Below, piece after piece: positions 25,340-47,728 of a DNA stretch of 49,174 nt. How positions within the stretch are numbered: position 1 is the stretch's first letter; each line of letters opens with the position of its first letter. The DNA is taken from positions 1-49,174 of the forward strand of contig JAVZLH010000008.1 of assembly GCA_038883855.1 (NCBI GenBank), given 5' to 3'. Made by a program: the position numbers and the translations under genes. Under the pieces are notes generated by a model that saw only the letters and a list, made by a program, of their open reading frames with translations, searched no databases and was not told the origin of the DNA. This DNA is from Candidatus Bathyarchaeia archaeon (GTDB lineage Archaea > Thermoproteota > Bathyarchaeia > Bathyarchaeales > Bathycorpusculaceae).

Positions 25340-26551
25340 ATGCCCCACTTTGAGAAAATAGAATACAAGCCCATACCAGTTAGAGAGTTGCTTTTAGAGA
25401 TGAAAAACCTTTCAGAGTTAATGATAGACTTAGCGTATTCCGCCGCACTCTTTAACGACAAAGACCTTGCAGAAGACGTGTTAGAGCTTGAAAAACGCGT
25501 TGACACTTTGGCTTATCTCTTAGACATGGAAATAATGATAGCGGCAAGAGACGCCAAGGACGCGGAAGCCTTAACAGGAGTGTCCACGGTGGCTGCGGCA
25601 ACAGACAAAATATCGGATGCAGCCGCGGACATTGCAGCAATAGTCACGCAAGACATAGGCGTACACCCGATCGTAACCGAAATTTTCGAAAGAGTTGAAG
25701 AACGCCTAACAAGAGCTAAAGTGGATGAAAAATCAGTAATCGTTGGCAAGCAGGTCTGTGAACTTAATTTAGCTGCAAGAATGGGCATAGACATAATCGC
25801 CATTCGCCGGGGCAACGAGTGGATATTAAACCCGAAAGAAGATGAAAAAATTTTACAAAGTGACGTTCTAATCACGCGAGGGACCCCGTCCGGAATCAGG
25901 AAATTTAAAGAATTGGCCGAAGAAAAAGTGCAGAAAATGGAAGTCGAAATGCCACGGCGGCATCGTGATCAAAAGAGATTTGATGAGTTTGAGGGAATTG
26001 TTGAAAAGTTTGTTGAACTTAAAAACACGTCTGAATTAATGATGGATTTGGCTTATTCTGCACTGCTGCTTGACAACAAGGAACTGGCTGAAGAAGTGCA
26101 AAGGCTAGAGGAATACGTTGACAAATTGCACACTGAATTTGAGTTGACAGTCCTGTCAAGCCGATTTAAGAAGGAAGAAGCAAAAGGCTTCCTTGGACTT
26201 ATACGATTGGGCGTGGTTACAGAAAAAATAGCAGACGCCGCGGCTGAAATCGCCGAAGTTGTTTTGAGAGGCATAGAAACCCACCCAGTGTTGAAACTCG
26301 CTATAAAAGAGGCGGATGAAACAGTAACGCATGTATGCGTTGCTGAAAACTCTCCATTAGCAAATAAAACTCTAAAAGAAGCACGGATTCCAGAGGAAAC
26401 TGGCATGTGGGTTCTCGCTATAAAAAGGGGAGAAAAGTGCATAAGACCAAAGCCAGATTCGAAAATTGAAGTTGGCGACATATTGATAGCTTCAGGTTAT
26501 GCTGAGGGAGAAGAGGATCTTAAAAAAATGGCATCACCGGTAAGTAGTTAG
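25340..26551 (+). CDS. Tandem (PhoU + TrkA-C) x2 regulatory protein
   Basis: Internal duplication MKNLSELMIDLAYSA / LKNTSELMMDLAYSA, each followed by RCK-C (IIAIRRG / VLAIKRG). Confidence 0.88.
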   Translation: MPHFEKIEYKPIPVRELLLEMKNLSELMIDLAYSAALFNDKDLAEDVLELEKRVDTLAYLLDMEIMIAARDAKDAEALTGVSTVAAATDKISDAAADIAAIVTQDIGVHPIVTEIFERVEERLTRAKVDEKSVIVGKQVCELNLAARMGIDIIAIRRGNEWILNPKEDEKILQSDVLITRGTPSGIRKFKELAEEKVQKMEVEMPRRHRDQKRFDEFEGIVEKFVELKNTSELMMDLAYSALLLDNKELAEEVQRLEEYVDKLHTEFELTVLSSRFKKEEAKGFLGLIRLGVVTEKIADAAAEIAEVVLRGIETHPVLKLAIKEADETVTHVCVAENSPLANKTLKEARIPEETGMWVLAIKRGEKCIRPKPDSKIEVGDILIASGYAEGEEDLKKMASPVSS

Positions 26552-26619
26552 GATATTTATTCTGGGTTCATTAACACTATAAGCTCGGAATCCAATTCTT
26601 ACATAAAGGAGGATTAACC

Positions 26620-27006
26620 ATTACACAAAAGAAAAAGCAGATAGCCAAAGGCAGCGGTATCACATGTCCAAATCCACTGTGCGGAAAAACCTTCTCAAAC
26701 CCGATAAAAGCTGAAGTGATAGGCTCAAAGAAAGCGGAAACGTTTGACGCTTGCCCCTACTGCCTAACAGAAATAAAAGTAGGCGAGGACGCGGAAACTG
26801 TTGAAGCCAAGAGAGAGAAAATCGAAATAAAACAAACAGAAATACAGAGAATAGAAGAGGCACCATCCACAAAAATCCAGAAGATGGAAGGATGCCACTA
26901 TTATATTGGATATCTGAGCCAACGTTCCACAAAAGAAAAAATACCAGAGGAATGCATGGTCTGCGAAAATATTGTGAAATGCATGCTTAAAAACGTGACT
27001 GGTTAG
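26620..27006 (+). CDS. Two-module Cys-rich zinc-binding protein, probable ATT start
   Basis: CPNPLC...CPYC ribbon and C-terminal CHYYIGYL...IPEECMVC..IVKCML; AGGAGG SD precedes ATT 26620; in-frame TAA at 26572. Confidence 0.7.
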   Translation: MTQKKKQIAKGSGITCPNPLCGKTFSNPIKAEVIGSKKAETFDACPYCLTEIKVGEDAETVEAKREKIEIKQTEIQRIEEAPSTKIQKMEGCHYYIGYLSQRSTKEKIPEECMVCENIVKCMLKNVTG

Positions 27007-44321: not shown

Positions 44322-45788
44322 TTATTCAACATGAACACGGAATAAGTCCACGTCCTCACGCATTTCTGGTGTTAACTCTAGGAATTCTCTTACGGCACGC
44401 TTGATATCTTTTGACTGCGTCACATAGCGCCCTACAATAATTATGTCCGCACCCTTTTCTAGAGCTTCTCTTGCTGTTTCAGGCACTATCCCACCAGCCA
44501 CGGCAACCAAGAAGCGTTTATCGCTAAAGGTTTGGCGAAGCTTCTGTATGAGGTCTAGCCCAATGGTTTTTCCAGTTTCTTGGTCTATCCCCCTATGTAT
44601 AATAATTACATCTGGAAAATCCTTCAATGTCTTTAGCTTTTCAATAGGATCTTCAACGTTTAACATATCAACCATGGAGTATATGCCAACTCTTCGCGCC
44701 TCGTATATGAAGGCGTTAAGCGTTTCTGCTGGAGCCAGACCAGCAGCCACCACAGCATCAGCAGTCTCTTCATAGGCTATGTCGACCTCAACTTTCCCCA
44801 CATCTAAAGTTTTCAAATCTGCAACCATGAAAACATCTTTGGCTACTTGCCTAAGCTCGTTTATCACCTTAGTTCCATAACGCTTTATAAGCGGCGTCCC
44901 GACCTCCAAGATTATTCTGTCGCTTCCAGGAATTTGCTCTATAATCCTCTTCGTCCTTTCAAGTTCCGGTATGTCAAGCGATATTTGCAGGTACGGCGGT
45001 CTCCAGAGGCGTGGAACCCTGAATCCCATTATCGGATGTTTAGCCCTATCCTTGTCATAGAACACCTTCTCGAGGGTGGGATACTTGTTCAACGCCCTTT
45101 TTAAGGCCAGTTTAGTTGCGCTATAGTTATAATGGTAGATTTTGCGGTAGTCCTTAGCTTGCGGATGGACAAAAACGCTGCATACGATAACCCAATCATC
45201 TACCTTATCACGGGGGATAAGCCCCTCTTCAACAGCATCTGCAACAGCTTTCGCCACAGCAGCTTGCGCAGGACCAAAAATTTTAGCAGCATCTTCCATG
45301 GTTTTAACAGTGACCTTTGGCACAAGAAGTGTATGCGGCTTAGGCGGCAAATTGGGTCTAATAACAGCAAGCAACGGCGTATGTCCAGCTGAAAGATTAG
45401 ACAAACCAGCGGCAAAAGCCTCTCCTACAGGACCATCTTTGTCGCCCATTAAAAGATCAATGTGTGCGACCTCCTCACCTTCCCCGACAAACGCCTCGCC
45501 AATAAGATATGTTTTCCCAGTTTCGACAGACTTCGGCACAATCGTTGTCGATAAATTCCGTGAAATATCTTTAAAATCGACATTGAACTCTTTCAGCCAA
45601 GCGTAAAGGGTGTCCCTATGTATGTTTAAGATTTTGGCGGTACCAGAAATTGTAGGTTTTGTCGGCTTAACCTTAAACATAGCTCGAGATTCCATTTCCT
45701 TTTTGGCAGCTTCCGTCAACATTCTTACAAATTCTTCTCTAGATTTTGGCTTTGCGACGTTGATCTCCGACACCTTGAACCTCACCAC
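44322..45788 (-). CDS. fae-hps: Bifunctional formaldehyde-activating enzyme / 3-hexulose-6-phosphate synthase with extra N-terminal HTH domain
   Basis: Fae: GEAFVGEGEEVAHIDL, GHTPLLAVIRPNL, FGPAQAAVAKAVAD. Hps: LEVGTPLIK, ADLKTLD, HRGIDQE, VAGG, IVGR. Residues about 45-70: TISGTAKILNIHRDTLYAWLKEFNV. Confidence 0.93.
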   Translation of the reverse strand: MVRFKVSEINVAKPKSREEFVRMLTEAAKKEMESRAMFKVKPTKPTISGTAKILNIHRDTLYAWLKEFNVDFKDISRNLSTTIVPKSVETGKTYLIGEAFVGEGEEVAHIDLLMGDKDGPVGEAFAAGLSNLSAGHTPLLAVIRPNLPPKPHTLLVPKVTVKTMEDAAKIFGPAQAAVAKAVADAVEEGLIPRDKVDDWVIVCSVFVHPQAKDYRKIYHYNYSATKLALKRALNKYPTLEKVFYDKDRAKHPIMGFRVPRLWRPPYLQISLDIPELERTKRIIEQIPGSDRIILEVGTPLIKRYGTKVINELRQVAKDVFMVADLKTLDVGKVEVDIAYEETADAVVAAGLAPAETLNAFIYEARRVGIYSMVDMLNVEDPIEKLKTLKDFPDVIIIHRGIDQETGKTIGLDLIQKLRQTFSDKRFLVAVAGGIVPETAREALEKGADIIIVGRYVTQSKDIKRAVREFLELTPEMREDVDLFRVHVE

Positions 45789-45811: not shown

Positions 45812-45928
45812 TGTATATAAGATTGTCGGATCATGTCGCTGATTTCCATGTCGATGAAAGTAATTTTTGTAGGGATAAATGTCGGATAGTGAAGGGCATG
45901 CGCAGTTTTTCGCTACATTTCAATGTCG
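45812..45928 (-). promoter_or_regulatory. fae-hps promoter: TATA box plus array of five TGTCG repeats
   Basis: Minus-strand TTATATACA at 45812-45820; + strand TGTCG at 45824, 45834, 45849, 45880 and 45924. Confidence 0.55.
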
Positions 45929-46015: not shown

Positions 46016-46207
46016 ATGAGCTGGAAAGACTTAACATGTTTATTCTTGTTTTTGTTAGGTGCCGTTTTGTTCTTACATGGAGGCAACTTTTATAATGCAA
46101 TAACTGGTTGGGCTGGAGTTTTCCTCATATTAAGCAGCGTTTTCGCCGAAATATTCCTACACATATATGAGAGTATAAGAGAAAAGAGCAATATTCAAAA
46201 ACCATAA
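46016..46207 (+). CDS. Small two-TM membrane protein
   Basis: 63 aa, two hydrophobic segments joined by GGNFYNAITGWAG. Confidence 0.6.
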   Translation: MSWKDLTCLFLFLLGAVLFLHGGNFYNAITGWAGVFLILSSVFAEIFLHIYESIREKSNIQKP

Positions 46208-47728
46208 AGCTTTGAGTATTTATCGCTGAGGTAATTTAGGTATGGCTTAATGTCGAGACCTGTCCCAGCTATTTTCTTGATAAGGTCTTCTGGATCGTAG
46301 AGGTTGCCGTAACTGTGGACATTATTAACAAGCCACCTTTTTATGTTCTTGAAATTGCCTTTTGAAAGTTGTTGTCTCCAGTTGGGCAAGGTTTTTTCCA
46401 TTGCGTCAAGTATTTGCCCACTGTAAATATTGCCCAACGCGTAGCTCGGAAAATACCCATATAAACCACCAGCCCAATGAGTGTCTTGCATAACGCCTTC
46501 AGAGTCGTTTTCAACTTTTACCCCTAAATATTCTTGATACATCTGATTCCATATTTCAGGAAGTTCTTTAACGGTTATTTTGTCTGCAAAAAGATCTTTT
46601 TCGATTTTGAATCTAACTATTATATGCAGTCCATAAGTGACCTCATCTGCTTCCACTCGAATCTTTGATGGCTTAACATGGTTTATTGCATGAACAAACT
46701 TCTCCAGTTCCAAGTCTGCTAGAGTTTTGCCAGCAATTTCCTTCATTTTTGGAAGAAAGTACACCCAAAATTCGCGAGAGCGTCCAATTATGTTTTCCAC
46801 AAAGCGGGATTGCGACTCATGGAAACCCGAAGAGCATGCGGTGCCAACTGGTTGGTAAATCCACTCTTGTTTCAGGTTCTGCTCATATAGGGCATGACCG
46901 ATTTCATGAAGAACCGAGAAGATTGATGACATGAAGTTCTCCTCGTAAAAATGAGTTGTTATTCGCACGTCATAATAATAACCTGTTGTGAAAGGATGTT
47001 CAGTTTCATCTATTCTTCCCCCAGCCTCCTTTGAACTCGCATCATAATCTACGGTTTCCGCCAAAGCTTTGGCTATCCGACGTTGCACTTCTATTGGAAC
47101 ATTCCGTTCGAGAAAGCGCATTTCAGGTTGTTTTGGAGCCGCCTTGTATTCTTTCAAGATTGAAATTAGCCCTTTTTGTAATTCGTTAAAGATTTTAGCG
47201 ATTGTTTCAGCCGCCATTTTCGGTTCGTAAATATCGATTAACGCGTCATATGGTGTTGCGGTCTCTTTTACTTCCATAAGAATTTCTGCAGCCTTCTTTT
47301 TCAAATCCACAAGCTTTTCAAGCTCGGGTCTAAACATTGAGAATTTTTTGGCTGCTTTAGCTTTTTTCCAGACATCAACCGTTATAGTGCGTTGTTTAGC
47401 AATTTCGACAACCAAATCCTCGGGGAAGCGCTGTCTGCTCGTCATACTGTTTCTTTATTAGATACAGATTTCTTTTTTGAATCTCATCAAGATCATCGTA
47501 CTTTGGATTATGCAAAATGCTTTCGAGCAACATTCCTATTTCTGGGTCGGTGCTCATTTTATGTTCTATGAGGCTTAGCAAAGCTAGCTGTTGACTTCTT
47601 AGACCTATAGCTTTCGGAGGCATCATCGTTTCCGTATCCAAGTCTAAAATGTACTTGGCAGACTGGAAAACAAACAGGTCCTTCGCCTTATCCATTAGCC
47701 TCTTATAAACAGAGTTAATTTCCTCCAT
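46195..47728 (-). pseudogene. Thermostable carboxypeptidase (M32), split by a single +1 frameshift at about 47422-47425
   Basis: HEIGH, HESQS, HPF, IRVEADEVTY, GVMQDTHW and GYFPSYALG motifs; the N-terminal 110-aa ORF joins the rest if one C of CTT-CCC-C-GAG is skipped. Confidence 0.88.

Follow-up and report, generated by a model that had tools for sequence, protein, structure and literature searches.

A gene for the fused metabolic enzyme Fae-Hps in a Candidatus Bathyarchaeia archaeon encodes, ahead of the enzyme, an N-terminal domain with a predicted helix-turn-helix (HTH), and it carries an array of the hexamer CCGACA over its own promoter and 5′ coding region. The gene occupies 44322..45773 on the minus strand of the window, meaning the whole stretch of DNA that was analyzed (49,174 nucleotides; GenBank assembly GCA_038883855.1, contig JAVZLH010000008.1). 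It encodes 483 amino acids (aa) from a GTG codon at 45771-45773 to a stop codon at 44322-44324, as placed by its open reading frame (ORF) and by the starts of its homologues. The array is new in this analysis, while the HTH had been noticed in an earlier reading of the window made without database searches (below, the sequence-only reading). It is probable that the oligomeric Fae-Hps enzyme binds its own gene and autoregulates.

The minus-strand frame is free of interruptions over 44322..45788 and translates to 488 aa when counted from a more upstream GTG (45786-45788). GTG 45771-45773 is the likely start, and the database entry for the window protein (P0001) has the corresponding 483 aa. In 20 homologous loci the proteins start with M-S-[E/D/G] (15 ATG, 4 GTG and 1 TTG), and the alignment of these starts with GTG 45771-45773 places the start there rather than at 45788. 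The five residues between the two GTG codons are unconserved, and in several relatives a stop codon directly precedes M-S. This in-frame stretch (45774..45788, minus strand) is probably a 5′ leader and holds a Shine-Dalgarno-like GGTGAGG at 45780-45786; in the aligned relatives, GGTGA or GGAGG sequences of this kind lie about 7-13 nt 5′ of the M-S start. Further upstream, a pattern match in the window places a TATA box, TTATATA (45814..45820, minus strand), 41-47 nt 5′ of the start codon. Its columns, T-T-A-W-A-T-A, are conserved at 94-100% in 109 loci, at about 37-47 nt 5′ of the start.

A start downstream of the HTH was also considered, since it would leave the HTH outside the protein. The conserved promoter and start codon lie 5′ of the HTH, and together with conservation at the protein level they argue, from sequence evidence, that the HTH part is translated, as the sequence-only reading had assumed. 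No conserved internal start for an HTH-less enzyme was evident in the variable linker of the alignment, to which no formal test was applied. In addition, a 256-nt contig from a metatranscriptome library covers 45516-45771, the HTH-coding part, with 0 mismatches and ends at the start codon; DNA contigs continue 5′ of 45771, while RNA-library contigs leave that region uncovered. This is a weak hint, because the 5′ end of a transcript cannot be derived from contigs and DNA may be present in the library.

The hexamers were first seen in 20 loci. In all 20, CCGACA lies three bases 5′ of the TATA box; its inverse, TGTCGG, lies across the start codon (NTG TCG G) in 18, and a further CCGACA stands about 53 bp more upstream in 15. 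The larger counts rest on 112 non-identical loci for promoter and start, and on 105 full-length genes for coding copies. Positions are given on the gene strand, which is the minus strand of the window, and are counted from the start codon. The copy at −56..−51 (45824..45829) is placed 3 bp 5′ of the TATA box, where the transcription factor B recognition element (BRE) is expected, and CCGACA is found at −50..−56 in 109/112 loci. The inverted copy at +2..+7 (45767..45772) overlaps codons 1-3 (GTG TCG GAG), and TGTCGG occupies this position in 106/112 loci. Codon 2 is TCG in 108/112 loci, whereas TCG accounts for 15.6% of the serine codons in the remainder of these genes, and base +7 is G in 107/112 although residue 3 varies (E in 55, G in 28 and D in 22). 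A more upstream CCGACA lies at −112..−107 (45880..45885) in the window, and at least one further hexamer is found between −140 and −66 in 78/112 loci, most often near −105. Two imperfect copies, TCGACA and GCGACA, each followed by T, were observed between the −112 and −56 hexamers (45830-45879, minus strand). The 505-nt region defined below contains TCGACA four times, and imperfect copies of this kind may be weaker sites.

Hexamers of the array are also found in the coding sequence. A CCGACA at +109..+114 (45660..45665, minus strand) is formed by Pro-Thr codons of the peptide motif KPTKPT, and an inverted TGTCGG at +285..+290 (45484..45489, minus strand) by the F-V-G codons at the start of the Fae domain. 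Against a null in which synonymous codons were resampled from the genes' own usage, a hexamer falls in +90..+125 in 83/105 genes (null 15.2 ± 3.6, maximum 24), in +205..+300 in 77/105 (null 11.7 ± 3.1) and in +325..+365 in 28/105 (null 3.9 ± 1.9). Over +1..+365 the 105 genes hold 352 hexamers, compared to 48.3 ± 6.6 under codon resampling, and hexamer density is 9.18 per kb in these first 365 nt but 0.61 per kb in the remaining gene. The coding copies of the hexamer are thus kept by codon choice. Loci mostly hold 4-7 exact copies, and the distances between neighbors peak at 51-56 bp (166 pairs) and at 105-107 bp (71 pairs). These peaks correspond to five and ten helical turns, so that the array is phased at about 53-54 bp. 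The columns flanking the hexamers are near background composition, while hexamer and TATA box are invariant, and CCGACA ranks first in an unbiased 6-mer count of the region.

This arrangement is specific to the fae-hps gene. In the 1.11-Mb genome from which the window comes (G000, 85% complete), the pattern CCGACA-N3-TTAWATA occurs once, and the fae-hps promoter is the only cluster of at least three hexamers within 130 bp. None of the 38 TTTATATA sites elsewhere in this genome has an adjoining CCGACA, and therefore CCGACA is not the general BRE of the lineage. In 41 related genomes, the same pattern occurs 31 times, of which 28 are at this gene, compared to 5 occurrences of the reversed control. 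The three extra sites, of which G008 has one and G035 two, stand ahead of unrelated genes and have no copy at the start codon. A looser pattern, CCGACA-N40-56-CCGACA, is no commoner than its reversed control, and a CCGACA/TGTCGG dyad at C1:156129 falls inside a coding region. Pattern searches of G000 and the 41 related genomes found no regulon beyond the fae-hps gene itself.

Presence of the array follows presence of the HTH. The hexamer count for each locus covers the same 505-nt region around the IGEA motif, which extends 415 nt to its 5′ side and 90 nt to its 3′ side. At loci whose recognition helix has the canonical HRDT residues, at least three hexamers are found in 103/105. At loci encoding Fae-Hps without an HTH, there are none in 15/18 and one in 3/18, and hexamers are absent from both loci whose HTH deviates. 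The HTH-less orthologues retain the V-G and P-V-G peptide motifs in Fae without the TGTCGG spelling. Array and canonical HTH are therefore co-absent, and two of these 20 contrasts lie inside the HTH-bearing clade. The first (L048; G266:C5, about 25689-26903) belongs to a genus that otherwise bears the HTH. An in-frame deletion, with the junction MSGTEVKKPENR/ASGPTYLIGESLV, has removed the whole HTH and kept the first 12 residues, and CCGGCA and ATGTCAGG replace the two core sites, by one substitution each (the start reads ATG TCA GG). The second (L072; G224:C94:3770-5245) is a second copy (64% identity) in a genome that also has a canonical one (L035). Its recognition helix has changed from HRDT to QLDT, and its CCGACA hexamers number 0.

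The enzyme part of the protein is whole, with a complete Fae followed by a complete Hps. The Fae domain (45027..45503, minus strand) matches PF08714 over residues 96-254 (E 6.9e-72, profile positions 1-159/159 in Pfam), TIGR03126 (E 3.4e-78) and PDB 1y5y (E 4.9e-44). The Hps domain (3-hexulose-6-phosphate synthase, OMPdecase fold; 44382..44996, minus strand) matches PF00215 over residues 265-469 (E 3.2e-33, profile positions 1-221/221 in Pfam), TIGR03128 (E 1e-37) and PDB entries 9lj9, 3f4w and 3ajx. The NCBIfam equivalog for Fae-Hps, NF009833, scores 583.6 bits against a cut-off of 274, with residues 94-487 aligned to profile positions 2-390/392. Since this 392-position equivalog begins to match at residue 94, about 90 N-terminal residues are surplus. 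ORF, Pfam and NF009833 thus agree with the sequence-only reading, which had described about 90 extra residues before Fae in one unbroken frame, and the strings it had quoted (SREEFVRMLTEAAKKEM, TISGTAKILNIHRDTLYAWLKEFNV and AHIDL) are all found in the translation. Fae joins formaldehyde to tetrahydromethanopterin (H4MPT), and Hps interconverts hexulose-6-phosphate and ribulose-5-phosphate plus formaldehyde. The protein is predicted to catalyze both the condensation of formaldehyde with H4MPT and the conversion of hexulose-6-phosphate to ribulose-5-phosphate and formaldehyde, in either direction. Fae is a pentamer, and its crystals have five chains per entry (for 1y5y, 10 chains in 2 entries). 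Chain B of PDB 8ub7 (290 aa), which is deposited as "Avd", also matches the Fae domain, over its residues 110-286 (E 3.9e-44), and matches of this kind comprise nine entries with five chains each.

The surplus residues form the N-terminal domain and a linker. In an alignment of 20 orthologues (A1), the domain (residues 1-70; 45564..45773, minus strand) consists of a helix-like part, TREEFvkmLtEAAKKE (TREEFVRMLTEAAKKE in the window protein), followed by KPTKPT and by the HTH, ISGTAK.LNIHRDTLYtWLKEFNVDF, whose core in the window is TISGTAKILNIHRDTLYAWLKEFNV (45579-45653, minus strand). Invariant positions are K39, T41, S43, A46, L49, H52, R53, D54, T55, L56, W59, E62, V65, D66 and F67. A variable linker of about 20 residues (residues 71-89; 45507..45563, minus strand), with poorly conserved columns and differing length, joins the HTH to Fae. 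The isoelectric point is 9.74 for residues 1-89, compared to 6.01 for the enzyme part.

Profile comparisons suggest what kind of HTH this is. The families GP3_package, HTH_29 and HTH_23 match 20/20 members of A1 and HTH_28 matches 19/20, all under the Pfam cut-offs. GP3_package (PF16677) scores 21.0 bits on the window domain, which is under its gathering threshold of 29.4, and all 20 relatives are likewise below threshold (best E 1.9e-5). A search of 1.84 billion representative proteins with the A1 profile gave 75 matches at E ≤ 1e-3. Most of them are tandem-HTH repeat proteins or partial copies of the same gene; in addition, the profile reached small proteins (E 2e-6 to 5e-4) that themselves pass PF16677 at E 1e-17 to 1e-24. 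In hhalign, A1 aligned with seven such PF16677-passing proteins at 98.8% (E 5.7e-17, 45% identity over 47 columns), these partners having been picked from A1's own profile matches. The top matches in PHROGs are "terminase small subunit" families, with phrog_606 in 12/20 members (best E 4.8e-6), and viral contigs encode small terminase subunits (TerS) with the sequence ..PTIEGLA..L.IHRDTLYAW... From these comparisons, the extension is predicted to be a basic, three-helix HTH domain nearest to the HTHs of phage small terminases. The GP3_package alignment is confined to residues 31-78 (profile positions 27-79/105), and this partial alignment, together with the non-viral neighboring genes, indicates that the protein is not a terminase.

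The presence of an HTH in the extension, as claimed in the sequence-only reading, is thus supported by the hhalign comparison and by the basic character of the domain, while its assignment to the Fis/NtrC type is not. The domain resembles the Fis/NtrC HTH (HTH_8, PF02954) in being a simple HTH with the motif ..A..L.I.R.TLY..L. However, HTH_8 matches 17/20 members with the weakest scores and reaches only 11.9 bits on the whole window protein (E 0.19) and 14.6 bits on the N-terminal domain, compared to a cut-off of 22; terminase and transposase-type HTH families score better. "Small-terminase/transposase-type HTH" therefore appears a closer label than "Fis-like". An ESM Atlas search with the domain gave no usable match. 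No paralogue of the domain was found in G000 at E ≤ 10, so that this family offers no other obvious reader of the hexamer sites there. An 89-aa ORF in G025 was considered as a free-standing HTH and rejected, the gene being merely cut by the end of its contig.

It can be stated that the extension is genuine, conserved coding sequence. With residues 1-93 as the sole query, 799 proteins were matched at E ≤ 0.01 among 869 candidates from a collection of 5.8 billion proteins. Among the 120 matches listed, nearly all are 483-488 aa long and all contain PF08714 and PF00215, with 57-99% identity in the extension. A six-frame search of the 41 related genomes found a stop-free match beginning at query residue 2-9 in 32. 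In GTDB, with one genome per species, 276 genomes encode a relative of the extension, and the titles of the best 80 of these all name Candidatus Bathyarchaeia, Bathyarchaeota or Bathyarchaeales. Among 301 sampled genomes of the phylum, the gene is present in 16/16 genomes of the window's family, with the HTH deleted in one; the long form also occurs in two more families of the window's order and in one other order, and the canonical short Fae-Hps in many other lineages. Many Bathyarchaeia Fae-Hps enzymes thus carry a conserved, virus-like, predicted DNA-binding head. Databases label these proteins of 483-488 aa plainly as "Fae/Hps", with the N-terminal domain remaining under Pfam thresholds, and this annotation is corrected here.

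Two variant forms were observed. A locus in another Bathyarchaeia family (L051; G068:C4:81720-83033) encodes a different extension, about 75 residues long, that includes the HTH-like motif LNIAEMAQKYNVSRDTIERRLKF; it is without a CCGACA array and may be a diverged form or a second fusion. On a metagenome contig (L163), a gene at 297-755 fuses the N-terminal domain to an unrelated C-terminal part (..KIFVIMPFDSTFDDVW..), with the end of an Hps gene immediately upstream. Its product is termed P0129 below.

An array of CCGACA on the start of its own gene is what would be expected of an autoregulating DNA-binding enzyme, and none of the 20 loci without a canonical HTH has an array. The N-terminal HTH would be the part that recognizes CCGACA. 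With flexible linkers of about 20 residues, the oligomeric enzyme core would present several HTHs at once, and these could engage the 4-7 hexamers, about 53-54 bp or five helical turns apart, on one face of the DNA. In this way, several contacts that are weak individually might together give specific binding to about 450 bp of the gene, between about −110 and about +350. The BRE position and sites just downstream of the transcription start are typical of archaeal repressors. Because one hexamer of the array occupies the BRE position and another follows closely on the expected transcription start, we infer that the effect of binding is repression. Occupancy of the BRE-position copy and the start-codon copy would block TFB/TBP or RNA polymerase, and the outcome would be negative autoregulation of the enzyme level. 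More speculatively, the substrates (formaldehyde, H4MPT and sugar phosphates) might modulate DNA binding. The sequence-only reading had proposed a DNA-binding regulatory enzyme. Its proposal gains a translated HTH and an operator-like array, while the binding itself is something we only infer from these. Control by formaldehyde, H4MPT or sugar-phosphate status, which it had put forward as well, stays speculative.

A bolder form of this reading is a tentative possibility, on the doubtful side, in which a Bathyarchaeia lineage domesticated a viral small-terminase head by placing it onto the pentamer-forming Fae-Hps, so that a ring of HTHs wraps about 450 bp of its own gene. TerS proteins are reported to present their HTH motifs in a ring (PMC4737164). 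Phage TerS (PF16677 GP3_package, PHROG 606) would thus resemble the Bathyarchaeia protein in having a homologous HTH on a ring-forming core, with several HTHs facing repeated DNA sites. Unlike TerS, the Bathyarchaeia protein has no TerS oligomerization core and no TerL-binding tail, and its ring would come from a metabolic enzyme. Moreover, unlike viral TerS genes, its gene is chromosomal, single-copy, conserved across Bathyarchaeia and without viral neighbors. Under domestication, the enzyme ring would replace the terminase ring, and the sites would be phased every five helical turns or so. The result would be an archaeal autoregulatory nucleoprotein particle of a new kind, in which a DNA code dictates codons of the very protein that reads it (the M-S-[E/D/G] start and KPTKPT), and it may couple the enzyme level to one-carbon (C1) and pentose status.

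Several points weigh against autoregulation by the enzyme. The HTH-less controls mostly belong to other orders and families and only two contrasts lie inside the clade, so that shared ancestry could explain part of the link between HTH and array. In addition, the hexamer counts are not independent events, because the loci are related. P0129 carries the canonical HTH on another domain, and its gene has no hexamers at the promoter or start; it has only two, in the codons equivalent to KPTKPT. The viral terS genes with an HRDTLY helix that were examined have no CCGACA arrays. As to the domain itself, every HTH match in Pfam falls short of its curated cut-off, and profile searches of the PDB gave no significant match to a solved structure (best 2ao9, E 0.17 with A1; with a second alignment, A2, only 2ao9, E 0.2). 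Finally, pentamer or decamer symmetry is awkward for classical operator binding, and a different factor could read the hexamers.

The last of these points can be developed into an alternative, namely that the array is the operator of a separately encoded regulator and that the HTH serves otherwise, for example in tethering a formaldehyde scavenger to the nucleoid or in protein-protein contacts. This is unlikely. It is in keeping with the P0129 gene, in which the same helix is encoded behind a promoter free of hexamers, and with the paucity of basic residues in the recognition helix, and it is favored by the fact that DNA binding by the Fae-Hps HTH is a prediction. However, the array vanishes along with the HTH when this is deleted (L048) and when its HRDT is changed to QLDT (L072), both inside the clade, and it is also missing from 18 other loci. 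Furthermore, the array lies partly within the HTH-coding sequence itself, and since its core pattern is essentially single-copy per genome at this gene, a separate regulator would serve one gene only.

It is also quite improbable that the N-terminal domain and the pac-like repeats are the relic of a captured viral small-terminase gene without a present regulatory role, or that the domain is an oligomerization or solubility tag. The nearest homologues are indeed small-terminase HTHs, but their genes in viruses, where examined, are without such arrays, and the recognition-helix residues, the hexamers and the unusual codons are invariant across families with 55-65% domain identity. Invariance amid randomized flanking DNA indicates ongoing selection and argues against a relic. 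Action at the RNA level, in which UGUCGG over the start codon would pair with the CCGACA at +109 and hide the start while the upstream copies would be unrelated or relics, draws on the complementarity of the nearly universal +2 (inverted) and +109 (direct) copies, but it is highly improbable given that the best-conserved copy adjoins the TATA box with more copies 5′ of it, outside the expected transcript, that the helix would be just 6 bp with a loop of about 100 nt, that invariant hexamers offer no covariation in support of pairing, and that multiples of about 53 bp fit the phasing of a DNA helix.

Several known systems come close to the one proposed here. PutA, BirA and NadR are bacterial enzyme-repressors ("trigger enzymes") with established ligand control. 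The likeness lies in combining catalysis with operator binding and autoregulation (both only predicted here) on one polypeptide, and in 32/41 related genomes the enzyme and the predicted DNA-binding domain indeed share one stop-free frame. The domains are unrelated, however, and the operators of the bacterial proteins are short dyads, compared to a phased array of about 450 bp that reaches into the coding sequence here. The canonical Fae-Hps of methanogens (NF009833) has the same complete domains in the same order; unlike it, the Bathyarchaeia protein has about 89 extra N-terminal residues as an HTH, and its gene has the hexamer array. Among archaea, RbkR is a bifunctional riboflavin kinase and transcription regulator (PMC5397151). 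RbkR resembles the proposed system in joining an archaeal metabolic enzyme to a DNA-binding domain that acts on genes of its own pathway, and it differs in its enzyme and DNA-binding families and in controlling a regulon, whereas here the protein's own gene alone shows sites. The sequence-only reading knew of no description of an HTH on Fae-Hps, and a full-text literature search, whose coverage did not extend to subscription journals, likewise found no paper describing one.

Bathyarchaeia are among the most abundant archaea in sediments and have barely been cultivated, and to our knowledge almost nothing has been learned about gene regulation in them. The present analysis offers a concrete candidate protein-DNA pair, in which the enzyme can be purified and the 6-bp word stands at defined positions. 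If the proposed autoregulation is true, it would add an archaeal case to the few enzymes that also act as transcription factors. It would also mean that a viral terminase HTH was recruited for host regulation, and that a protein's opening codons and one of its internal peptide motifs are shaped by constraint at the DNA level.

No conserved, functionally related neighbor gene was found in 62 loci. An M32 carboxypeptidase gene lies upstream in 44/62 and a convergent MFS transporter gene in 32/62. In the window, the M32 carboxypeptidase gene upstream of fae-hps (46195-47728, minus strand) is split over two frames, with a break near 47423-47427. An intact 499-aa homologue aligns by its residues 1-91 to one of these frames and by residues 90-499 to the other. 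The gene is a pseudogene with a frameshift, or else the assembly is in error. Between this gene and the fae-hps promoter, the opposite strand contains an ORF for a hydrophobic product of 63 aa (46016-46207, plus strand).

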